This document shows, one piece after another, positions 3,001 through 26,550 of a DNA stretch of 64,000 nucleotides; within the stretch, counting starts at the first letter, position 1; each line of letters begins with the position of its first letter. Position numbers and translations under genes: made by a program. This DNA is from Stegostoma tigrinum (Eukaryota), in assembly GCF_030684315.1 (NCBI RefSeq), contig NC_081358.1:39805979-39869978 (forward strand), read 5' to 3'. The notes under the pieces are model-generated. The model was not told the DNA's origin. It saw only the letters and a list, made by a program, of their open reading frames with translations, and searched no databases.

Positions 3001-6000
3001 TTCATCTTTTGTGGATGAATGCAGCTTGAAGTTCAAAAAAACAGTCTGCTTGATCAGCACCCAACTTACCACCAACACCGATGCACAGTGGCAAAATGTA
3101 TGCACCCATCTAAAAGATGGGCCACAGCAATTCACTAAGGCTCCTTCAATAGTACTTCCAAATCCACAACTTCTGCTACTTAGCAGAATAAAGGTGGAAA
3201 ATGCACAGGAACGTGGCCACTTGTGAGTTGCGAAAGTTCCTGACTTGGAAAAATATGGTTGTTTCTTCATTGTGGCCGGATTAAAATTCTGAAACTTCCT
3301 TCGTAACAGCACAGTGGATGCACCTCCACGACATGGATTATACAGGTTCATGACGTTGGCTCACATACAGCGAGGACAATTTTTAATGGCATTAAATGCT
3401 AGTTTTGCCAGTGTGGGAAGGGAAGGATTTGTTGTTTTCAAAATAGCCACCGTCCTTGCTTAGGAGGAAATATATTCTTAACGTTTAATTTTGTTTTTCC
3501 TTGAGCTGACTCACGTTAATGAGAAATCTTGGGTGCTTATGAATTAAAATCAGGCAAGGATTATATTAAGTGTATTTATTATTCGGGAAAGGGAATGGTG
3601 ATCTTATTTCCAACAGTGAAGTTCATTCATGCTTTTGTTCAATTATTTACTTTGCTACGCATAGAATACCATTAAGCTGAATCAAGCGGGACATCAGTAT
3701 TTTTCCACACACTATTTCTCCCCATGAGCCTATCAGAAATTTCATTCTTCTTTATTTCTGATTAGGTCATGTATTCCTTCCCAGTTTTCCTGTACCATAA
3801 ACTGTCTGTGGTCGGGAAGGTATGTGTGTTGCAAGGAAGAGAAGGGAGTTACCTGCCCTGGACCTCCAATGGGACTTTGTTGTACATTACATTGGTGCCA
3901 TTTCTTATGATTGAAGGGTCTATTTGGACATCTTTTTTCACACCTCGTAACTGGAATGAAACGGCGAATTTATTTAAAATACAAGTTTTAGTCATTTTGT
4001 GTGAAAATATGCTTTTTAATAGAAGCTTACTTTTACAGTTCTACAGTCTCTCTTTGTTTTATTTTGCCCATTTTTATCTCCCTGTTCTCTTTTTACTTGT
4101 GGATGGCCCCTCTTACTGTGTCTCTTTACACCCCCCTCAACCATCTCTGTATCTCCCTCGCTGTCCAAACCCTGTCAGTGTCTCAACTCTCTTTCGCCTC
4201 TTACTCTGTCACTCTTCTCTGTCTCTCATTCCACCTATCTTTGCTTTTCTCATGTCTGGAATAGGTATATTCTGTCCAATTTACAACCTGAAATACCTTC
4301 AGGAAAATAAAAGTTTAATGTGGAAATCATTTTGAATGAAGCTGCACATAATGTGCCTGCTTCGTATTCTACTTGGGTGTTTGTTCTCCTATTTCCTGTT
4401 ACCCCTGTTTTTCCTGTCCATCTTTCACTTGTGTGTTTGTTAAATTGATGCACTGTATAAATGTTAATCATCTTTTATAAAATATGTTTCAGACTGCACA
4501 GAGTTTTATGTAAGATAAGATGTGAGCAAAGCTGAACAACTGATCCAAATCTGAGATATTGCACATTTGTCATAAATTCAACTGACTATAAAGCATGCAC
4601 AGTACATACAATTTGCTTTCTCTTTGTTCTCCTTGGCCCAGTTCAAGCTGCATTTACCCTAATGCTACAAATGGAGTGTTTTCTTTATACAAAATAACAT
4701 TCTTGACACACCTATCAACTAAACGTTACTTAGATTTTGTTGGCAAAATTCTTTTTTTTAAAAAGAATTTAACAGGGTTTGAATGTCAATCTTCATTGTA
4801 TTTGACTTTGACCAGTTCTTTTAGAGCAGTTTTAAAAGCATTGATCAGAGCTGTTATATTAATTAAAGACACTTTTTTGCAACTTCAGCATGTCCCAAAG
4901 CACTCTACAGTCAATGTAAAAGTTAAAATGTAGTCACTATTCTAATGTCAGAAAATGTGGTGGCCAATCCTTTGACAACAAGGTCAGACGAATAGTGAAG
5001 GGGTAGTGACCAGGTTTTCCCATATTGTCTGTGACATAAGCACTGACAAGAAGATTTTCACTGCTCCCCTGAAATAGCTAGATGAAAGTCTTCCGCTGCT
5101 CCTTGATATGGCTGTGGATGTTATTTTTTAGCATCCACCTGAGAGGGTTGACTTGACCTTGGCCCAATGTCTCATCCAGAAGATGTCACTCCCAACAGTG
5201 CTGTCATCCCCCTTAAAAGCTTGTGTTTTTTTTGACAAAGTCGTTGTTCATTTTTAAGCTTTGAGCTCCTTTTAGCACTTGCATCTGTCATTCCTGGTGT
5301 TCTGCATGTGGAAAATATTTTTTGAGTGTCAATTAAATTTATGCAAACTTTTGTAAACCTAAAGCATGTCTTTTTCTATCATACATGTTTGCATCATCTG
5401 CTGTTCCTCTTGGATGCCAGTCCTTTCCACAGCTCCTATAAAGCAATCGCAGAAGTACCTTCTAATGCTGCAGACCTCGTGCTTTAATTTTTCAGGTGAT
5501 GTTACTTAGACTGCACTGTTTGTCCTCTGATTCTGTTGGTGTGAGAAAATTAGGTTGCAATTGCATACTGATGGCAGAATCAAAATTAAGATAAAGGTGC
5601 CAGAGTGTTGCCAGATCGTAAGGTGGTTTAATCAGAGGATTAGCATACCTCAGTCGAAGGGTGAGATTGAGAGGTTGAGTCCTTCATGTCAATCGCAGTG
5701 TTGGAATTGAACCCATGCTGTTGGCATCAGTCCACTTTACAAACCACCCATTCACCCGACTGAGCTATCTGACACCCCTGCTTGCAGAATAACATGGGCT
5801 TTAAGTGAGCATCTGATTTACCTGGAATGGAGGTTTTCTGATCAGGCATAGACCACCCAAATGGAGATGATAGAAAACTAAAAGTGCACTCTAATTGCAA
5901 GATATAAAGTTCCTTTGGAGAATGTTAAAGTTAGCACCTGTCACATGTGGTGTGTTTCCATTGGAATAAGTTGTTATTTTCAGATGCAAGCAACACCTAT

Positions 6001-6455
6001 AGTACCTTCATGTTTGATGTTACATGTTGGTGCTTGTAGTTATGGAGAGTTTGTCGAATTTTCTACCAAGATTGTAAGATAAGTATCCTCCAAGGGATTC
6101 TATGTTGACTGTTCAATAAAAATTTTGTAGGGTGACCCACCCTATTTTAATCATTTAATCTATCATTCAAAATCTCTGCTGATGTAACATGCATAAACAA
6201 AGTCTGCTTCAATTACTGTAAACCAGAGAAACAGACTTTAATTCAAATCTCACACAATGTTGGCATATGGCCTTTCCAAAGAAACTCCTTGACCTTAATA
6301 CTCCTGAATAGTGGTTATATTTGTATCTCTGCCCGAAAAACAGAGAACTGACATACTGCCTGAGGAGGTTTGGCAATACATTTCCATACTTGTCGTTGCT
6401 CATCAGAGAACGAATATCTGTGTAAAATGAAAAACAAACAGGAAATACTGGAGAA

Positions 6456-6743
6456 AGTGGTTAGCACTGCAGCCTCACAGCGCCAGGGACCTGGGTTCAA
6501 TTGCAGCCTCGGGCGACTGTCTGTGCGGAGTTTGCACGTTCTCCCCGTGTCTGCTTGGGTTTTCTCTGGGTGCTTCGGTTTCCTCCCACAGTCCAAAGAT
6601 GTGCAGGCTAGGTGGATTGGCCAAGCTAAATTGCCCGTAGTGTTTAGGGTGTGTGGGTTATAGGGGAATCGGTCTGGGTGGGATGCCGCAAGGGGCGGCG
6701 TGGACTTGCTGTAGAGAATTTAATCTAATCTAATCTAATCTAA
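6456..6743 (+). mobile_element. HE1-like tRNA-derived SINE (V-SINE), slightly 5'-truncated
   Basis: GTGGTTAGCACTGCAGCCTCACAGCGCCAGGGACCTGGGTTCAATT (A/B-box region), GGAGTTTGCACGTTCTCCCCGTGTCTGC core and a (TAATC)4 tail. Confidence 0.88.
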
Positions 6744-6836
6744 AATTTAGCAGATTTGACAACATCTGTGTATAGGTAGAGGGAAACAGTTAATGTTTTG
6801 ACTCTGACCTTCAAAACTGGGATAAGTTAGTGATGT

Positions 6837-7027
6837 CGGGATAGTAGGAACTGCAGATGCTGGAGATCTGAGATAACAAACTGTGTAGAGGTGGATGAAC
6901 ACAGCAGTCCAAACAGCATCAGAGGAGCAGGAAGGCTGACGTTTTGGACCTAGACCCTTCTTCAGAGAGGGTCTTCGGATTGTTGCATGGCCTGCTGTGT
7001 TCATCCAGCTTCATACCTTGTTTTCTC
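6837..7027. mobile_element. Palindromic PLE-terminus mini-insertion (older subfamily, decayed HHR)
   Basis: A minus-strand tail plus HHR is joined to a plus-strand partial arm. TSD TAAGTTAGTGATGT at 6823-6836 and 7028-7041. Confidence 0.88.
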
Positions 7028-8524
7028 TAAGTTAGTGATGTGATAAGTTTTGAGCAAGACACAGTTAGGACAAGGTCAAGAGAAAAGTCTGTAATTGGGT
7101 GGAAGACTGAAAAAATTGAATGACAGAAACGTTGATCTTCTAGAGCCAAAGGGAATGAGATGGGCCAAGAAATGTTTCCGGTCTGAATTTATTAAATTGA
7201 CTTGAGGTGGAAAGCTGTAAAGTGCCTAATAGAAAGATGAGGTGCTGTTCCTCAAGTCTGCATTAAGTTTCACCAAATCATTGCAACAGGCGAAGGACAG
7301 AAATGGTAGCCTGAAAGCAAGGTGGAAAATTAAATGATAGGCCACTGGAACCATGCCTGTCGACAGAACAGACATGTTTGCGAAAGAGATGATACTGTTT
7401 GAATTTGGTCGTCTTAATATAGAAGATAACACATTGTGAGCAGTAAATTAGATCGAAAGCAGTATACATAAATCATTAATGGAGATAACAAAGTGTGGAG
7501 CTGTAAATCATTACTTGGGAGGGGAGGTAAAAGTGCAGATGTTACATCTGCATTTCCTGGAGAAGGTGCTTAGGTGATCAGTTGTTGGAGATTGTGAACT
7601 GAACCAAGGTATCATGGAGGGAGTGGAGGGCAAGACTTGTTTGGTAATGGAGTCATGCTGAAGGTAGCAAAAATAGCAGAAAATATTTCATTGAATGGAA
7701 AGACTGTTGAGGTGGAAGATGAGGACAAGGAGACCTCTGTTATGGTTAACAGAAGGAGGGTAAGGGTGAGAGCAGAAGTGTGGGACATGTGGGAACAGGG
7801 GCCAGGTCAACCACAGTGAGGTAAATCCTAATTTCAGGAATAAAGATTTCTTAGGAGCATTGTTGTTTAATACTGCATCATTAGGACAGATGTCATGGTG
7901 GATACAGATTAACTGAGAGTGTAGAGTGGGGTCCCATAGAGAATTGGGTGTAAATTAGTATATGATATCTATGCATTCTTCTTTGCCTCGCAGGCGGTGG
8001 AGGAAATGGCAATAGTGTGTGTTTGATCAGCTTCTTCCCTTTGTTTCATGAGGCAATATTGTGCCTCTCTAAGAATTTTCCTCATGTCCTCTTGATAGTT
8101 GTGATTTCTTTTATGACAATTGCTCTTGGTTTTGGTTATCATTTTAATTGTCTTCTACCTAGATGCCAGTGGGCTTGGGATTGATAGGTGAATATGATTT
8201 GCCAACCTTGCCCTTATTTGCAGTAAAGTTTTTTTTGATTACCTTAATTTACATGTAGAACATGAGAAATCAGCTCAGAGTGCGTTGGAATAATCAAGTG
8301 CAGAAGATAAAGTGATAGATGAGAGTTTCAGCAGCCTGTGAGCTGAAATAGGAGTCTAATGCTGTTAATGGTCGAGGGGTGAATATTGTTCATGACATCG
8401 TGAAGATTTTCTTGCTTTTTGAAGCAGGCAAACTGGACTTTGATTGAATGGCATTTTGAGCAATTAAAACTCTATCAGCATGTCACTGATGTGTAAGTCT
8501 ACTTTACAAGCTTAAGTTTCTTAA

Positions 8525-9809
8525 GTGGGATTGGAAAAGGTTATAAGGGATAGGATTTATAATCATCTAGAAAAGAATAAATTGATTAGGGATAGTCAGC
8601 ACGGTTTTGTCAAGGGAAGGTCATGCCTCACAAACCGCATTGAGTTCTTTGAGAAGGTGACCAAACAGGTAGATGAGAGTAAACCGGTTGATGTGGTGTA
8701 TATGGATTTCAGCAAGGCGTTCGATAAGGTTCCCCACAATAGGCTATTGTACAAAATGCAGAGGAATGGGATTGTGGGAGACATAGCAGTTTGGATCGGA
8801 AATTGGCTTGCTGAAAGAAGACAGAGGGTGGTAGTTGATGGGAAATGTTCATCCTGGAGACCAGTTACTAGTGGTGTACCGCAAGGGTCGGTGTTGGGTC
8901 CACTGCTGTTTGTCATTTTTATAAATGACGTGGAAGTTGCCACCCAGGTTGACAAGATAATAAAGTGTGAAGCTGGATGAACACAGCAGGCCAAGCAGCA
9001 TCTCAGGAGCACAAAAGCTGACATATCAGGCTTAGACCCTTTTTCATATCTCTGATGAAGGGTCTAGGCCCGAAACGTCAGCTTTTGTGCTCCTGAGATG
9101 CTGCTTGGCCTGCTGTGTTCATCCAGCTTCACACTTTATTATCTTGGATTCTCCAGCATCTGCAGTTCCCATTATGTCACCCAGGTTGACAGGGCTGTTA
9201 AGAAGGCACACAGTGTTTTAGCTTTTATTAATAGAGGGATCGAGTTCCGGAACCAAGAGGTTATGGGGAAGCTGTACAAAACTCTGGTGCGGCTGCACTT
9301 GGAGTATTGCGTACAGTTCTGGTCACTGCATTATAAGAAGGACGTGGATGCTTTGGAAAGGCTGCAGAGGAGATTTACTAGGATGTTGCCTAGTATGGAG
9401 GGAAGGTCTTATGAAGAAAGGCTGAGGGACTTGAGGCTGTTTTCATTAGAGAGAAGAAGGTTGAGAGGTGACTTAATTGAAACATATGAAATAATCAGAG
9501 GGTTGGAGAGGGAGAGCCTTTTTCCTAGGATGGTGACGGCGAGCACGAGGGGGCATAGCTTTAAATTGAGGGGTGAAAGATATAGGACAGATGTCCGAGG
9601 TAGTTTCTTTACTCAGAGAGTAGTAAGGGAATGGAACGCTTTGCCTGCAACGGTCGTAGATTTGCCAACTTTAGGTACATTTAAGTCGTCATTGGATAAG
9701 CATATGGATGTACGTGGAATAGTGTAGGTTAGATGGGCTTCAGATCGGTATGACAGGTCGGCACAACATCAAGGGCCGAAGGGCCTGTACTGTGCTGTTA
9801 TGTTCTATG
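8525..9809 (+). mobile_element. CR1/HER1-type LINE, 5'-truncated ORF2 with internal deletion
   Basis: [48 protein letters not shown], then a jump to the C-terminal region (FADD motif deleted). Ends ...GGCCTGTACTGTGCTGTTATGTTCTATG. Confidence 0.92.
8955..9177. mobile_element. Palindromic PLE-terminus mini-insertion with an intact HHR core (9052-9079, +)
   Basis: Two head-to-head copies of the PLE 3' terminus. TSD CACCCAGGTTGACA at 8941-8954 and 9178-9191. Interrupts a CR1 ORF2. Confidence 0.9.
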
Positions 9810-18235: not shown

Positions 18236-19978
18236 CCTCCACTTCCTTCAGGATTTTCAATTCCCTGGCCCCTCAAACCTCATCTTCACCATGGACATCC
18301 AGACACTGTACACATGTACCCCCCACGTAGATGGCCTAAAAGCCCTCTGCTTTTTCCTCTCCTGCAGGCCCAACCAGACCACCTCCACCGACATCTACTG
18401 AATGGAACTTGTCTTTACCCTCAACAACTTTTCCTTTAACTCCTCGCACTTCCTACAAACTAAAGGGCTGGCTGTGGGCACCCGTATGGGTCCGAGCTCT
18501 GCCTGCCTGTTCGTAGGATACGTGGAATAGTCCCTTTTCCACTGATACACTGGCATCATCCCCTTCCTCTTCTTCTGCTACATTGATTGTATCACCGCTG
18601 CCTTGTGTTACCGCAGGAAGCTTGAGCAGTTCATCAACTTTACTAACACCTTTCACCCCAACCTCAAATTCACCTGGACCATCTCTGATACCTTCCTCCA
18701 TTTCCTGGATGTCTCTGCTTCCATAACCAGTAACTGTCTCAGTACTGACATCTATTTCAAACCCACAGCTAACTTGATTACACCTCGTCTCACCCAACCT
18801 CCTACAAGAATGCAATCTCTTACTCCCAATTGCTCTGCCTCCACCACGTCTGCTCCCAGGACAGAGCCTTCCACTCCCACTCGTGTCCGATGTCCTCCTA
18901 ATTCAAGGATTGCAACTTCCCCCTCTCTTGATTGAAAATGCCCTCAACTGCATCTCTTGCATTTCCCACACTTCTTCCCTAAAACCCCCTCCCCCCAACA
19001 AAAATAAATACTGAGTCTCCCTGGCTCTCACATACCACCCCACCAACCTCCGCATCCAGCGCATCACCCTCCACCATTTCTGCCACCATACAATCCAAAC
19101 CTACCACTAAAGAGAGATTCCCCTTTCCCACCCCTATTTGCTTTTCATAGGGACCACTCTCACTCTGCAACTCACTCGTCCACTACTCACTCCCCACTAA
19201 CTCCGCCACACCAGGCACCTTTCCCTGCAACTGCAGGAGATGTTACACATGTCCCTACACCTCTGTTCTCACCTCCATCTGAGGCCCAAGATAAACTTTC
19301 CATATCTGATAGGGGTTCACCTGTACATCCTCCAACCTGGTTTGCTGTATCCCTTGCTCCCGATATGGTCTCAGCTGTATTGGTGAGACCAGCATAGACT
19401 CAGTGACAGATTTGTGGAACATCTGTGCTCCATACACTATAATCAATACCTTCTGGTTGCCAACTATTTTAACTCCTCCTCTCTCCTCCCACTCCCTGGA
19501 TGACATGCCCATCCTGGGCCTCCTCCAGTGCCACAATGATGCCACATGCAAACTGGAGGAACAACACCTCATATTGTGCCTCAGGAGCCTACAACCTGTT
19601 GGCCTAATGTAGAATTCACCAGTTTCAAAATCTCCCTAACCCCAGTGTCATCCCATTTCCAACCCTCCCTCTCATACCCACCTCCTTGACATGACACTAC
19701 CTGTCCATCTCCTTCCATATCTATCTGCCACAACCTTCCCATTGACTAATCCCCACTACCCCTACCTGCATCCACCTATCACCACCCACCTACCTTCCCC
19801 AGGACCACCCCATTTACCTCTATCTATTCTCAGCTCCCTTTCCCCTTCCCGGTCCTGATGAAGGGTCTAGGCCTAAAACATTTACTGTCCTAATCCTCTG
19901 ATGCTGTCTGACCTGCTGTGTTTCTCCAGCTTCGTGCTGTTTTGACTCTGACTCCAGCATCTGCAGTTCTTGCTATCT
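18236..19978 (+). pseudogene. Decayed 5'-truncated PLE of the same lineage (RT C-half, GIY-YIG, 3'UTR, degenerate HHR at ~19855)
   Basis: Fragments LHFLQDFQFPGPSNLIFTMDIQTLY, LEQFINFTNTFHPNLKFTW and LEEQHLI, with stops and frameshifts. Terminal CTCCAGCATCTGCAGTTC. Confidence 0.9.
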
Positions 19979-20945: not shown

Positions 20946-20972
20946 TCTGAACTAAATGCCAAGATCAGTTGT

Positions 20973-21875
20973 ATCAGAGATAATGGGAACTGCAGATGCT
21001 GGAGAATTCCAAGATAATAAAATGTGAGGCTGGATGAACACAGCAGGCCAAGCAGCATCTCAGGAGCACAAAAGCTGACGTTTCGGGCCTAGACCCTTCT
21101 TCAGAGAGGGGGATGGGGAGAGGGAGCTGGAATAAATAGGGAGAGAGGGGGAGGCGGACCGAAGATGGAGAGTAAAGAAGATAGGTGGAGAGAGTATAGG
21201 TGGGGTGGTAGGGAGGGGATAGGTCAGTCCAGGGAAGACGGACAGGTCAAGGAGGTGGGATGGGGTTAGTAGGTAGCTGGGGGTGCGGCTTGGTGTGGGA
21301 GGAAGGGATGGGTGAGAGGAAGAACCGGTTAGGGAGGCAGAGACAGGTTGGACTGGTTTTGGGATGCAGTGGGTGGGGGTGAAGAGTTGGGCTGGTTGTG
21401 TGGTGCAGTGGGGGGAGGGGACGAACTAGGCTGGTTTAGGGATGCAGTAGGGGAAGGGGAGATTTTGAAACTGGTGAAGTCCACATTGATACCATATGGC
21501 TGCAGGGTTCCCAGGCGGAATATGAGTTGCTGTTCCTGCAACCTTCGGGTGGCATCATTGTGGCAGTGTAGGAGGCCCATGATGGACATGTCATCTAGAG
21601 AATGGGAGGGGGAGTGGAAATGGTTTGCGACTGGGAGGTGCAGTTGTTTGTTGCGAACTGAGCGAAGGTGTTCTGCAAAGCGGTCTCCAAGCCTCCGCTT
21701 GGTTTCCCCAATGTAGAGGAAGCCGCACCGGGTACAATGGATGCAGTATACCACATTGGCAGATGTGCAGGTGAACCTCTGCTTAATGTGGAATGTCATC
21801 TTGGGGCCTGCGATAGGGGTGAGGGAGGAGGTGTGGGGACAAGTGTAGCATTTCCTGCGGTTGCAGGGGAAGGTG
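20973..21875 (-). repeat. Inverted copy of the PLE 3' end (GIY-YIG region, 3'UTR, HHR and terminal tail)
   Basis: The minus-strand ORF 21329-21958 reproduces TFPCNRRKCYTC...SNLSLPP. The arm also carries ~40 nt of terminal tail (20973-21014) that the sense copy lacks. Confidence 0.95.
21077..21104 (-). ncRNA. Minimal hammerhead motif in the inverted arm
   Basis: Reverse complement reads CTGAAGAAGGGTCTAGGCCCGAAACGTC; the only change is at the variable N7 position. Confidence 0.78.
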
Positions 21876-21928
21876 TCAAGATAATAAAATGTGAGGCTGG
21901 ATGAACACAGCAGGCCAAGCAGCATCTC

Positions 21929-24900
21929 CGGACCAACCTCAGGGAATCTCTCTCCCATTGCAACTCTGTTGTAATCTCTTCGGCCTTGAAACTACTCGAC
22001 CATGTCCTGAAGCAAACCAGGTACCACAGCCACATCACCTTCCTCAGCACCTGCCTACGGAACCAGATCATCCCCAAGGGACTACAGTCCACATTTCAGC
22101 CTTCCCAATTTGGCCCCAACCGTGACCACCTCTACACCCAGAATATTCAGACCCTTGAGAAGCGTTTCTCCCTGCGAGTCCTGAAACAGACGCTTGCAGC
22201 CATGCGCCGGCACCTCCAGGCACTGCAATCCAGCCTGCCCCAGCTCAGAGCCTCCCTCTCCCAGACCTGCAAAGGACCTCTGCTGTTTTTTATCTTCCGC
22301 AGGATCCACAGACTGAACACCCAGTTCCACTCAGCTTTACTGGACACCAAAAATCGTAAGTACAACCAACTCACGGGCCCCTGCCACCCACAAGAGGATT
22401 CCTGCGCCTCCCAAATCCCGACTCTGTCCCTGCCCCTCCCCCACCATGCATCCGCCGCCATTGACCATGAGGACACGGCCGGAGACCCCACCGATGACGT
22501 CACATCCGCCTCCGCCGGCCACAGAACTTCCGGAACCGCTGCAGCAGTCACCACCTCCACATCCAGGTACAACACCCCACACACTACCCTCACCGCAGCT
22601 GCTGCCGCCCACCCCGATCCTCCAACCGCCGACGGAACCCCGCCCACGGCTGACGGAACCCCGCCCACGGCCGATGACCTCATCGCTCCGCCCGCAACCT
22701 CCACAGCCAGCAACCCCAGAGGAGACAGCCACACTCAGCCCTGCCGCATCTTCACCATCCCCCCAGACCTCCCACTGACTGAGGACGAATGGTCAGTCCT
22801 TAGCAAGGGGCTCACCTTTGTTCCCCTACAACCACACATCAACGAATACCAGTCACGGTTGGACATAGAGCAGTTTTTCCGCCGTCTTCGCCTCCATGCC
22901 TACTTCTTCAACCGGGAACCTAACCCTCCTTCCACTGACCCCTTCACCCGCTTCCAACACAAGTCCTCCTCCTGGACACCACCCCCAGGCCTCCTACCCT
23001 CCCTCAACCTCTTCATCTCCAACTGCCGTCGAGACATTAACCGCCTCAACCTCTCCACCCCTCTCACCCACTCCAACCTCTCCCCCGCAGAACGGGCAGC
23101 CCTCCGCTCCCTCTGCTCCAACCCCAACCTCACCATCAAACCCGCAGACAAGGGTGGCGCAGTGGTAGTATGGCACACTGACCTCTACATCGCCGAGGCC
23201 AGACGCCAACTCTCCGACACCACCTCCTACCGCCTCCTCGATCATGACCCCACACCCGAGCACCAAACCATCATCTCCAACACCATTCACGACCTCATCA
23301 CCTCAGGGGACCTCCCACCCACAGCCTCCAACCTCATTGTTCCCCAACCCCGCACGGCCCGTTTCTATCTCCTTCCCAAAATCCACAAACCTGCCTGCCC
23401 TGGTCGACACATCGTCTCAGCCTGCTCCTGCCCCACCGAACTCATCTCCACCTATCTGGACTCCATTTTCTCCCCTTTGGTCCAGGAACTCCCCACCTAT
23501 GTCCGTGACACCACCCACGCACTCCACCTCCTCCAGGACTTCCAATTCCCTGGCCCCCAACACCTCATATTCACCATGGACGTCCAGTCCCTGTACACCT
23601 GCATTCCGCATGGAGATGGCCTCAAGGCCCTCCGCTTCTTCCTGCCCCGCAGGCCCGACCAGTCCCCCTCCACCGACACTCTCATCTGCCTAGCTGAATT
23701 CGTCCTCACACTCAACAACTTGTCTTTTGACTCCTCCCACTTCCTACAGACTAAGGGGGTGGCCATGGGCACCCGCATGGGCCCCAGCTATGCCTGCCTC
23801 TTTGTAGGTTACGTGGAACAGTCCCTCTTCCGCACCTACACAGGCCCCAAACCCCACCTCTTCCTCCGGTACATTGATGACTGTATCGGCGCCGCCTCTT
23901 GCTCCCCAGAGGAGCTCGAACAGTTCATCCACTTCACCAACACCTTCCACCCCAACCTTCAGTTCACCTGGGCCATCTCCAGCACATCCCTCACCTTCCT
24001 GGACCTCTCAGTCTCCATCTCAGGCAACCAGCATGTAACTGATGTCCATTTCAAGCCCACCGACTCCCACAGCTACCTAGAATACACCTCCTCCCACCCA
24101 CCCTCCTGCAAAAATTCCATCCCCTATTCCCAATTCCTCCGCCTCCGCCGCATCTGCTCCCACGATAAGACATTCCACTCCCGCACATCCCAGATGTCCA
24201 AGTTCTTTAAGGACCGCAACTTTCCCCCCACAGTGATTGAGAACGCCCTTGACCGCGTCACCCCTATTTCCCGCAACACATCCCTCACACCCCGCCCCCG
24301 CCACAACCGCCCTAAGAGGATCCCCCTCGTTCTCACACACCACCCTACCAACCTCCGGATACAACGCATTATCCTCCGACACTTCCGCCATTTACAATCC
24401 GACCCCACCACCCAAGACATTTTTCCATCCCCTCCCCTGTCTGCTTTCCAGAGAGACCACTCTCTCCGTGACTCCCTTGTTCGCTCCACACTGCCCTCCA
24501 ACCCCACCACACCCGGCACCTTCCCCTGCAACCGCAGGAAATGCTACACTTGTCCCCTCACTTCCTCCCTCACCCCTATCGCAGGCCCCAAGATGACATT
24601 TCACATTAAGCAGAGGTTCACCTGCACATCTGCCAATGTGGTATACTGCATCCACTGTACCCGGTGCGGCTCCCTCTACATTGGGGAAACCAAGCGGAGG
24701 CTTGGAGACCGCTTTGCAGAACACCTCCGCTCAGTTCTCAACAAACAACTGCACCTCCCAGTCGCAAACCATTTCCACTCCCCCTCCCATTCTCGAGATG
24801 ACATGTCCATCATGGGCCTCCTGCACTGCCACAATGATGCCACCCGAAGGTTGCAGGAACAGCAACTCATATTCCGCCTGGGAACCCTGCAGCCATATGG

Positions 24901-25075
24901 TATCAATGTGGACTTCACCAGTTTCAAAATCTCCCCTTCCCCTACTGCATCCCTAAACCAGCCTAGTTCGTCCCCTCCCCCCACTGCACCACACAACCAG
25001 CCCAGCTTCCCGCGCCCCCCCACCCACCCACCCACTGCATCCCAAAACCAGTCCAACCTGTCTCTGCCTCCCTAA
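21929..25075 (+). CDS. PLE polyprotein: N-terminal domain, T/P/A-rich linker, reverse transcriptase, Cys-rich linker, GIY-YIG endonuclease (5'-truncated, no native ATG)
   Basis: The frame is open from the junction at 21929 (the ORF track starts at a TTG, 21986) to TAA at 25075. RT motifs: FTMDVQSLYT, QTKGVAMGTRMGPSYA, LRYIDD (YIDD at 23870-23881), FLDL. Linker CNRRKCYTC. Endonuclease NVVYCIHCTRCGSLYIGETKRRLGDRFAEH...EQQLIFRLGTLQPYGIN. Confidence 0.93.
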   Translation, partial: RTNLRESLSHCNSVVISSALKLLDHVLKQTRYHSHITFLSTCLRNQIIPKGLQSTFQPSQFGPNRDHLYTQNIQTLEKRFSLRVLKQTLAAMRRHLQALQSSLPQLRASLSQTCKGPLLFFIFRRIHRLNTQFHSALLDTKNRKYNQLTGPCHPQEDSCASQIPTLSLPLPHHASAAIDHEDTAGDPTDDVTSASAGHRTSGTAAAVTTSTSRYNTPHTTLTAAAAAHPDPPTADGTPPTADGTPPTADDLIAPPATSTASNPRGDSHTQPCRIFTIPPDLPLTEDEWSVLSKGLTFVPLQPHINEYQSRLDIEQFFRRLRLHAYFFNREPNPPSTDPFTRFQHKSSSWTPPPGLLPSLNLFISNCRRDINRLNLSTPLTHSNLSPAERAALRSLCSNPNLTIKPADKGGAVVVWHTDLYIAEARRQLSDTTSYRLLDHDPTPEHQTIISNTIHDLITSGDLPPTASNLIVPQPRTARFYLLPKIHKPACPGRHIVSACSCPTELISTYLDSIFSPLVQELPTYVRDTTHALHLLQDFQFPGPQHLIFTMDVQSLYTCIPHGDGLKALRFFLPRRPDQSPSTDTLICLAEFVLTLNNLSFDSSHFLQTKGVAMGTRMGPSYACLFVGYVEQSLFRTYTGPKPHLFLRYIDDCIGAASCSPEELEQFIHFTNTFHPNLQFTWAISSTSLTFLDLSVSISGNQHVTDVHFKPTDSHSYLEYTSSHPPSCKNSIPYSQFLRLRRICSHDKTFHSRTSQMSKFFKDRNFPPTVIENALDRVTPISRNTSLTPRPRHNRPKRIPLVLTHHPTNLRIQRIILRHFRHLQSDPTTQDIFPSPPLSAFQRDHSLRDSLVRSTLPSNPTTPGTFPCNRRKCYTCPLTSSLTPIAGPKMTFHIKQRFTCTSANVVYCIHCTRCGSLYIGETKRRLGDRFAEHLRSVLNKQLHLPVANHFHSPSHSRDDMSIMGLLHCHNDATRRLQEQQLIFRLGTLQPYGINVDFTSFKISPSPTASLNQPSSSPPPTAPHNQPSFPRPPTHPPTASQNQSNLSLPP

Positions 25076-25299
25076 CCGGTTCTTCCTCTCACCCATCCCT
25101 TCCTCCCACACCAAGCCGCACCCCCAGGTACCTACTAACCTCATCCCACCTCCTTGACCTGTCCGTCTTCCCTGGACTGACCTATCCCCTCCCTACCACC
25201 CCACCTATACTCTCTCCACCTATCTTCTTTACTCTCCATCTTCGGTCCGCCTCCCCCTCTCTCCCTATTTATTCCAGCTCCCTCTCCCCATCCCCCTCT

Positions 25300-25327
25300 C
25301 TGATGAAGGGTCTAGGCCCGAAACGTC
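25300..25327 (+). ncRNA. Minimal type I hammerhead ribozyme motif (tandem copy 1)
   Basis: CTGATGA-A-GGGT(CTAG)GCCC-GAAAC-GTC: conserved core boxes, a 4-bp stem II and palindromic ACGT at helix III. Confidence 0.8.
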
Positions 25328-25363
25328 CCTATTTATTCCAGCTCCCTCTCCCCATCCCCCTCT

Positions 25364-25391
25364 CTGATGAAGGGTCTAGGCCCGAAACGTC
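25364..25391 (+). ncRNA. Minimal type I hammerhead ribozyme motif (tandem copy 2)
   Basis: Identical 28-nt core, 64 nt downstream of copy 1. Confidence 0.82.
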
Positions 25392-25789
25392 AGCTTTTGT
25401 GCTCCTGAGATGCTGCTTGGCCTGCTGTGTTCATCCAGCCTCACATTTTATTAGCCAAGATCAGTTGTCACTGTTTTAATACGGACATTTTCCAAACAAA
25501 CATTTAATGAGTCTTTAACAAACCTATGTTCCTGACAGTGTAGCGAATTCAGTAACCAAGTTCAGATTTGTTCTTGATAGAAATATGACTTCTGTTATTT
25601 GCAACTATATTGACAATAAGCACTTCTTGTTTGTCTAAATTTATTCCAAAGAAAATTGCTTGCATTTTAATTGAGGAATGTGCAATAATTTTCAGTAGAT
25701 GGATTTATGCTTACTGACATCAAGTTGTACATAAAATTCTTGTTTGCTGCAATCTGGTCCATGGAAATCATGTATGAGCAATAAATCTT

Positions 25790-26550
25790 TCACATGATTT
25801 GCTTATTTTAACTGCCTCCATTCGTCTTGTGCTGAAATCCTCACCTATGTCTTTGTCACATCTGCAGCTGACAATTCTAATGGTCCCTTGGCTGGATTCT
25901 TATCTCCCACCCACATAAACATTGGCTTGTTGAAAATCCTGTTCCCCACCACCCTCTCTGCTCACCTATATATTGACACTAACTGCCAATCAACCGTCAT
26001 CTCTCTGCTTGCTAGCTTAACACTAGTTCTCGATCTAGCAATGCCCTGGTTTTAAAGCTCTAAATTGTAGTTTTCAAACCTCTCCATGGTCTCACTCTCT
26101 TCCTATCTCAATAACCTGCCTTAGTTTGACAAATTTTGGAAGTCTTTCTGGTCCTCTAATTCTGATGTCCTGTGCTCACTGAATATTGATCTATTAGTGG
26201 GGCTATAACTTCAGCTACTTTAGCTCTAGCTTTGAAAGTACCTCTGTAAACCTATCGACCTCTTCACCACTCATCTGGGCCCGAAATGTCAGCTTTTGTG
26301 CTCCTGAGATGCTGCTTGGCCTGCTGTGTTCATCCAGCCTCACATTTTATTATCTTGGAATTCTCCAGCATCTGCAGTTCCCATTATCTCTGACCTCTTC
26401 ACCACTCTCACTTTAGGATTTTTTTTAAAAACAACTTCTCTGACCAGACTTTTTGGTTTCTTTGGTAGGTTAGTTTCAAATAATGTTAGATAATATTCAT
26501 GTGAAGTGCTTTGGAATGTATCCATGCATTAAAGGTGCTATATAAATGCA
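25790..26550 (+). mobile_element. Decayed L2-type LINE 3' end
   Basis: CTCACCTATGTCTTTGTCACATCTGCAGCTGACAATTCTAATGG resembles LIHAFVTSRLDYSN; tail AAAGGTGCTATATAAATGCAAATTGTTG. Confidence 0.6.
26273..26391 (+). mobile_element. Solo PLE 3' terminus insertion, truncated within HHR stem II
   Basis: Near-identical to the terminus of the 20973 element. 16-bp TSD GACCTCTTCACCACTC at 26257-26272 and 26392-26407. Confidence 0.9.

Follow-up and report, generated by a model that had tools for sequence, protein, structure and literature searches.

The stretch of Stegostoma tigrinum DNA analyzed here (the window; 64,000 nucleotides, contig NC_081358.1, positions 39,805,979 to 39,869,978, assembly GCF_030684315.1) contains, at positions 20958-25468, an insertion that, judged from its sequence, is an endonuclease-positive (EN+) Penelope-like element (PLE). 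The original prediction had viewed this locus as one integration event composed of three PLE segments inside a single 15-bp target site duplication (TSD). Our analysis leads to a modified reading, to which we assign a probability of about 0.7: the insertion is one PLE event of four segments within one 15-bp TSD, built from two primed cDNAs that made one template jump each. The segments were read against the natural 3,639-nt unit of another copy (L033, positions 3436-7074), in whose numbering U1 is the base directly 3' of the tail and U3639 is the end of the tail. L-numbers denote copies of the window's PLE family fetched from the genome, C-numbers denote contigs, and X-numbers denote sequencing runs or samples. 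What is said of the papers cited refers to the portions of their texts that were available.

The coordinates given in the original prediction were all correct. The two TSD copies (20958-20972 and 25454-25468, plus strand) are identical at 15/15 positions, and no further occurrence of the sequence exists in the window in either orientation; in a comparable TSD scan of 300 position pairs drawn at random, none showed a match of at least 12 bases. Next to the left copy lies segment 1 (20973-21875, minus strand), the reverse-oriented 3' end of the element, which aligns to the unit from U3639 to U2737 (903 nt). It begins at the tail end with 2 nt of microhomology to the target, and contains the 42-nt PLE tail (20973-21014, minus strand; U3598-3639), which is present at this end of the insertion only, and an uninterrupted minimal hammerhead motif (21077-21104, minus strand). 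One untemplated T (21876) separates it from segment 2 (21877-21928, minus strand), a second reverse piece of 52 nt that aligns from U3602 to U3551. Segment 2 starts in the tail-less start region of the reverse transcriptase (RT), the tail-less ends of the family being clustered at U3594-3603.

The limits predicted for segment 2 stand, but segment 3 does not begin behind it: it begins at 21926 and shares with segment 2 a 3-nt microhomology (21926-21928) at the inversion junction. Segment 3 (21926-25327, plus strand) holds the open reading frame (ORF) and 3' region in sense orientation and aligns from U66 to U3535. Its terminus is exactly the predicted hammerhead cut site (U3535, window position 25327), and the 5' part of its hammerhead motif (25300-25327, plus strand) extends to the scissile bond after 25327. 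Thus, although the two reverse pieces and the sense piece were correctly recognized, the sense part consists of two segments, which brings the total to four. Segment 4 (25326-25453, plus strand) is a 128-nt sense 3' piece without tail (U3470 to U3597), which shares 2 nt of microhomology with segment 3, contains an intact hammerhead motif (25364-25391) and yields a 64-bp direct duplication (25262-25325 and 25326-25389). Both outer ends of the insert are indeed 3' ends of the element, tailed on the left and tail-less on the right, and both fall in the family-wide clusters of such ends. Inversion junctions of the copies examined have 0-4 nt of microhomology or short inserts.

The ORF (21926-25075, plus strand; 1,056 open codons) lacks its first 10 codons, including the ATG, and is predicted to encode an RT, a C-x4-C-xx-C linker and, at the C terminus, a GIY-YIG endonuclease. 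Its RVT_1 match (E 3.6e-5) lies under Pfam's cut-off, its Atlas matches at 0.97 are RT/HTH_animal/GIY-YIG clusters, and the YIDD and VVY..YIG motifs were recognized by eye in the translation. The translation also contains CTRC within the GIY-YIG core and KPADKGG, which fit the CCHH and DKG features described in PMC8557442. Other EN+ PLE traits are present as well, namely partial tandems (pseudo-long terminal repeats, pLTRs), an inverted 5' copy, an optional tail and a variable TSD. A first assignment to the Poseidon clade was dropped, since the C-x4-C-xx-C linker is absent from Penelope/Poseidon: according to the available text of PMC8557442, that group has no Zn-finger linker, and the linker found here fits the CX2-5CxxC form of Neptune and Nematis, a trait that cannot tell these two clades apart. 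A 27-bp in-frame tandem repeat (22627-22680; U740-920) lies in a Pro/Ala/Thr-rich part of the ORF, and its copy number varies among copies.

By eye, and by comparison with PMC4209133, the hammerhead motif, of the minimal type I form, was placed at U3508-3535 of the unit, with a predicted cut after U3535. The motif at 25364-25391 has the conserved core, the extra base between positions 9 and 10.1, the G10.1-C11.1 pair and the palindromic 15.2-16.2 described in the available part of that paper, and its predicted helix II is 4 bp long. The exact 24-mer of the core is present 34 times per sampled Mb, that is, roughly 100,000 times per genome.

Breaks at the predicted hammerhead cut site

A genome-wide pattern search for breaks located 0-6 bases past the hammerhead core gave 97 matches, and 28 of the first 70, which were examined, carry an A-rich untemplated run at the predicted scissile bond. 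These runs are 4-12 nt long, some being mixed with G or T and some lacking the last C, and they occur on several subfamily backgrounds; a few of the A-run copies may derive from one master. After the run, the element resumes at U3536 in 22 copies and nearly there in one; in three it goes on at a different position (L154 at U3036, L230 at U3210 and L247 at U3513), and two copies lead into other sequence. The other 27 matches, judged from 10 letters each, include about 6-8 more A-runs. At a control site, which lies ~290 nt farther upstream and is present in 14 exact copies per Mb, three breaks and no A-run were found; the weight of this comparison is lessened by its being a single control site, with a filter to which about half of all possible insertion lengths are invisible. 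When one A-run locus was used for a search, 99 candidates were obtained, and the A-run was present in 30/30 of those fetched. It should be noted that cut-site A-runs are infrequent, with tens of them per 100,000 copies, and seamless events are therefore uncountable.

Two sources of the A-runs were considered and rejected. Palindrome correction, in which the addition of three A's would make a palindrome at this site perfect, was discarded as the main source, as this form was found in 2/30 loci, in a search whose query favored four A's; the non-three-A loci among the 30 have 4-12 A's, have G or T mixed in, or miss the C. Canonical polyadenylation was discarded because no AATAAA is seen upstream on the sense strand, and it would leave the resumption at U3536 unexplained. 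Because the run keeps to the 5' side while the downstream partner varies, it is most likely a tail on the 3' end of a cleaved RNA, with reiterated copying at the template end as a lesser alternative. Tailing and reiterated copying alike would need a cut at the predicted scissile bond, and the A-runs are likely to record ribozyme cutting in living cells. They would provide genomic evidence of germline ribozyme cutting and of an RT jump onto the cut end.

In the case of the window, we consider it fairly probable that the junction between segments 4 and 3 reflects such a jump to a ribozyme-cut RNA end. The alternative that fares best is a tandem duplication of 64 bp, caused by slippage or repair, by which segment 4 was added at a later time to an insertion that originally had three segments, the breakpoint coinciding with the cut site by chance. 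The 2-nt microhomology, the lack of an A-run and the identity of the duplicate copies (64/64) would agree with such an event, and short duplications with different breakpoints near the core are present in L142 and L222. However, the break falls at the sole position where A-tailed breaks pile up, and untailed junctions at U3535 with the same geometry as in the window are found again in L138/L139 (twice) and L154; we regard a later duplication as rather unlikely.

Other irregularities were observed at or near this site. L145, L149 and L233 have a recurring T-rich 4-nt insertion three bases 5' of the predicted cut site. Mini-palindromes with dense one-strand T-to-C changes around the hairpin center account for 7 of the 97 matches (among them L148, L151, L161 and L165, center ~1500; L165 lies within a TSD), and they may represent either reinserted ADAR-edited hairpin RNA or inverted-repeat assembly errors. 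In L032 (3908-3915), L040 (4586-4590) and L047 (4524-4525; all oriented), short 3' pieces from U3504-3506 are joined to ORF-internal ends, and two of these three junctions have A-rich inserts; jumps onto degraded, A-tailed RNA ends are a possible explanation.

The literature searched (main texts, with few subscription journals) contains no description of A-runs at the cut sites of PLE hammerheads or of junctions located there, and PLE tail pairing is not counted in it; it is the cut-site scars and the tail pairing counts given below that are novel beyond that literature.

Head-to-head insertions and their tails

The proposal that the insertion is a long version of mini-palindromes is supported by the finding that short and long head-to-head copies are alike in their TSD lengths and in the presence of exactly one tail, to which we refer as the one-tail rule. 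An unselected sample of 1 Mb (five 200-kb blocks; copies of <94% identity or <40 nt were left out) contains 48 insertions, of which 28 are head-to-head, 19 single and one other; 22 of the 28 have a TSD of 12-19 bp, with a mode of 14. Long copies were surveyed at 35 loci picked by ORF-start similarity (37 stretches, with one locus in two and one segmental duplicate pair), and the head-to-head arrangement was found in 21 of them, 17 with a TSD. At least three pieces within one TSD are also present in C20 block 163256, L040, L050 and L061, some of which could instead reflect later deletions. The head-to-head layout within one TSD has already been published for PLEs and is this family's commonest form; it is not novel.

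The tails of these insertions are paired in a regular way. Among the 28 unselected head-to-head insertions, 25 combine a tailed with a tail-less end, one has no tail and two have an unclassed end, so that the one-tail rule holds in 25/26 classifiable cases (binomial p 4e-7 against 0.5, the ceiling for independent ends). The long head-to-head copies follow it in 17/21, the left end of L034 lying outside the stretch. No arm-length bias was found in the unselected sample (14 versus 10). That a tailed end faces a tail-less one in 25/26 head-to-head insertions suggests that a single event makes use of a different RT start site for each of its two primers. The one-tail rule thereby turns a descriptive trait into a testable constraint on the coupling of two primers and two start sites.

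Instead of by priming from two target strands, the inversion could have arisen by self-priming with an antisense strand as template, a route that PMC3846280 proposes for head-to-head PLE copies on account of palindromes at inverted junctions; L035 has a perfect hairpin junction. In the window insertion, however, the arms end at unrelated positions (U3551 versus U66) with no palindrome at the junction, and each of the outer ends coincides with an RT start cluster and abuts the TSD. Moreover, self-priming would leave the one-tail rule without a reason, and we consider it improbable.

Three further PLE copies were noted in the window. The one at 8953-9178 belongs to the family of the main insertion and forms a head-to-head mini-palindrome whose left end is tail-less and whose right end is tailed; its 17-bp TSD contains one mismatch, and the copy interrupts a long interspersed nuclear element (LINE) RT frame that we take to be CR1-like. 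A single tailed sense 3' piece with a 16-bp TSD lies at 26274-26393, 800 bp from the main insertion. Finally, an older 5'-truncated copy of a related subfamily (72-77% identical) is present at 18237-19969.

Single origin of the insertion

It is very probable that the insertion arose as a single event, as the original prediction had claimed, because there is an empty site with one TSD copy, no internal TSD is seen, and the arms share rare variants. Firstly, the empty allele that was to be looked for was found in a related organism (X4; flank ~5.5% diverged), one contig of which passes from 20957 directly to 25454, with one TSD copy and no element. Contigs of X10 and X11, two samples of the window's own organism, either of which may be the source of the assembly itself, span both outer junctions without any difference. 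A search of the own assembly did not find an empty site; a contig of X8 that ends at 20970 plus 40 spare letters fits one, but its joining is not shown and it was not counted. Secondly, none of the junctions of the insertion has an internal TSD. Thirdly, segments 1 and 3 differ in 17 of 799 columns, nearly all of them private and the rest common mutable sites, and they have 8 non-majority letters in common. The arms share 6 rare non-CpG variants, compared with at most 2 shared with any of 18 other copies, in keeping with a single donor lineage. The inverted arm is closest, in rare variants, to its own sense arm in 13 of 19 inverted loci; of the remaining loci, three have no rare variants to share and three are matched or exceeded by other copies.

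A single origin would also be obtained if a composite of segments 2 and 3, or of more, had pre-existed at the donor locus and had been copied as a single read-through RNA. Inherited rearrangements do get copied, as illustrated by a 41-bp micro-inversion (U2821-2861) that L051 shares with the two arms of L066; palindromic copies rich in T-to-C changes may stem from edited hairpin RNAs that were reinserted; and the inversion junction of L031 (3544, oriented; U3559 to U69) is nearly the same as the one in the window. However, no second copy of either junction is found among the 40 scored candidates of each junction-region search. L031 is not a close relative, and L048, which of the fetched copies is the nearest sibling, lacks both the inversion junction and the 64-bp duplication and is intact from U12. 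In addition, segment 2 starts exactly in the start cluster and carries no donor flank, and a donor composite appears very unlikely. The U66-69 region is a possible hot spot of inversion junctions.

Separate insertions that nested at a single spot, or a faulty assembly of the inverted repeat, are conceivable, given the family's ~100,000 copies and the fact that the internal junctions of the insertion are taken from the assembly, but the one TSD, the clean empty site, the lack of internal TSDs and the shared rare variants make them extremely improbable, and the arms differ at private sites and are therefore not a collapsed copy. A case of apparent segmental duplication was seen elsewhere: L009-L012, L038 and L039 (contig C56) represent four near-identical copies with common flanks (two compared).

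Mechanism and comparison with known systems

The window insertion, whose layout alone is ordinary for PLEs, provides a worked example of the one-tail rule and of a junction at the predicted cut site. Priming from both target strands together with template jumping, as suggested in the original prediction, gives the best fit to its structure, and we consider the two-strand priming quite probable. The separately initiated cDNAs of that prediction are better seen as two primed cDNAs, and instead of one template jump there would have been two, one in each cDNA. From the end positions and junction bases, we infer the following course. The GIY-YIG endonuclease would nick the two target strands 15 bp apart. 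The left 3'-OH would prime at the tail-end start site, after which 903 nt would be copied, and the right 3'-OH would prime at the tail-less start site, ~40 nt upstream, after which 128 nt would be copied. The left cDNA would then take one untemplated base and restart at the tail-less site for another 52 nt, and the right cDNA would jump to the hammerhead-cleaved RNA 3' end (U3535) and copy 3,470 nt. Finally, the cDNA 3' ends would pair over 3 nt and repair would close the gaps.

Several observations speak against this course of events or parts of it. Concerning the ribozyme, helix I of the motif has only 2 bp by eye, where 4-5 bp are expected (2 bp are likewise described for D. virilis in PMC4209133); Rfam gives no hammerhead match at E up to 1; and no stable structure was obtained for the pLTR-tail region, whose folding does not surpass that of shuffled sequences (z +1.21). 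In the window itself, the cut-site junction is free of an A-run and, with its 2-nt microhomology, resembles an ordinary tandem duplication. In the available text of a study of PAc, a Poseidon element of Anolis (PMC11167929), no RNA reads end at the cut site and cleavage is dispensable in vitro. Concerning the two start sites, the same study found the strands alike in their start sites, as measured in bulk. The one-tail rule has exceptions: no tail is present in one pair of the unselected sample and in L065, and L031 and L035 carry two (no TSD was found for either). Apart from segment 2, a restart of this kind at the tail-less site was observed at a single further locus, L053, for which a TSD was not found. 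Concerning the common origin, contig support covers the two outer junctions, the three internal ones being read from the assembly, 6 of the 19 inverted loci show no preference for their own arm, and later gene conversion from arm to arm could mimic a common donor.

In the unselected sample, arm 5' ends pile up at U3500-3522 (24/54), and the 23 bases upstream of it contain none; this position may correspond to an RNA or transcription start, or to an RT stall, just 5' of the hammerhead. This pile-up motivates a broader view that we put forward tentatively and rate as somewhat doubtful: PLE replication may involve strand transfer of the LTR-like kind and be carried out by an asymmetric dimer, with the minimal hammerhead setting the template 3' end in vivo. 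RT would start in the 5' pLTR and reach the RNA 5' end (an RNA start near U3500-3522 or a hammerhead-cut end at U3536), and the cDNA would then move to the RNA 3' end cut by the downstream hammerhead. In-register transfers would be traceless, and out-of-register or A-tailed ones would give rise to duplications and A-runs. By directing each target primer to a start site of its own, the asymmetric dimer would give rise to the one-tail rule.

In L1 twin priming, two target 3'-OH ends are said to prime two cDNAs that are joined by microhomology, producing an inversion within one TSD; the second primer reportedly lands internally, and the arms barely overlap. The window insertion would work like twin priming, but it differs from the L1 form in having a 3' end on either outer side: each arm begins at a 3' start site, and the two have ~800 nt of the element in common. 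In the case of R2, the RT jumps by leaving the template end, with a possible addition of untemplated bases, and resumes synthesis at the 3' end of another RNA; the R2 ribozyme is hepatitis delta virus (HDV)-like and forms the 5' end. Unlike this 5'-end ribozyme, the hammerhead described here would form the 3' end of the acceptor.

Among the PLEs, D. virilis Penelope (PMC2377424) and A. vaga Pen2a (PMC3846280) likewise have a single ORF encoding an RT and, C-terminally, a GIY-YIG domain. The elements of PMC2377424, PMC3846280 and PMC8557442 resemble the one in the window in having a 5'-truncated inverted copy beside a sense copy with one TSD around both, and published EN+ PLEs often have a 30-40-nt tail at one end only, as here. 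Whereas the tail is optional in the available descriptions of those three papers, the presence of exactly one tail is near-obligatory in the head-to-head copies of this family (25/26). Neither the restart at the tail-less site nor the hammerhead-cut junction appears in the PLEs as described there. The in vivo role of the PLE hammerhead is treated as open, or circularization is proposed, in the available parts of PMC7761336, PMC6765202 and PMC6155905, and a 2026 retrozyme preprint is, in its available part, silent on this role. As to PAc, its protein nicks and extends both strands in vitro and is predicted to form a dimer, and RT starts internally at two sites bounding the tail (PMC11167929). 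The C-x4-C-xx-C linker of the window element is absent from Penelope/Poseidon, the clade of PAc. On the other hand, PAc and the window element both have a hammerhead in the pLTR and two start sites bounding the tail. Whereas the PAc study, in its available text, saw neither RNA ends at the cut site nor a difference in start sites between the strands, the window's genome shows scars at the predicted cut site and the paired use of the two start sites.

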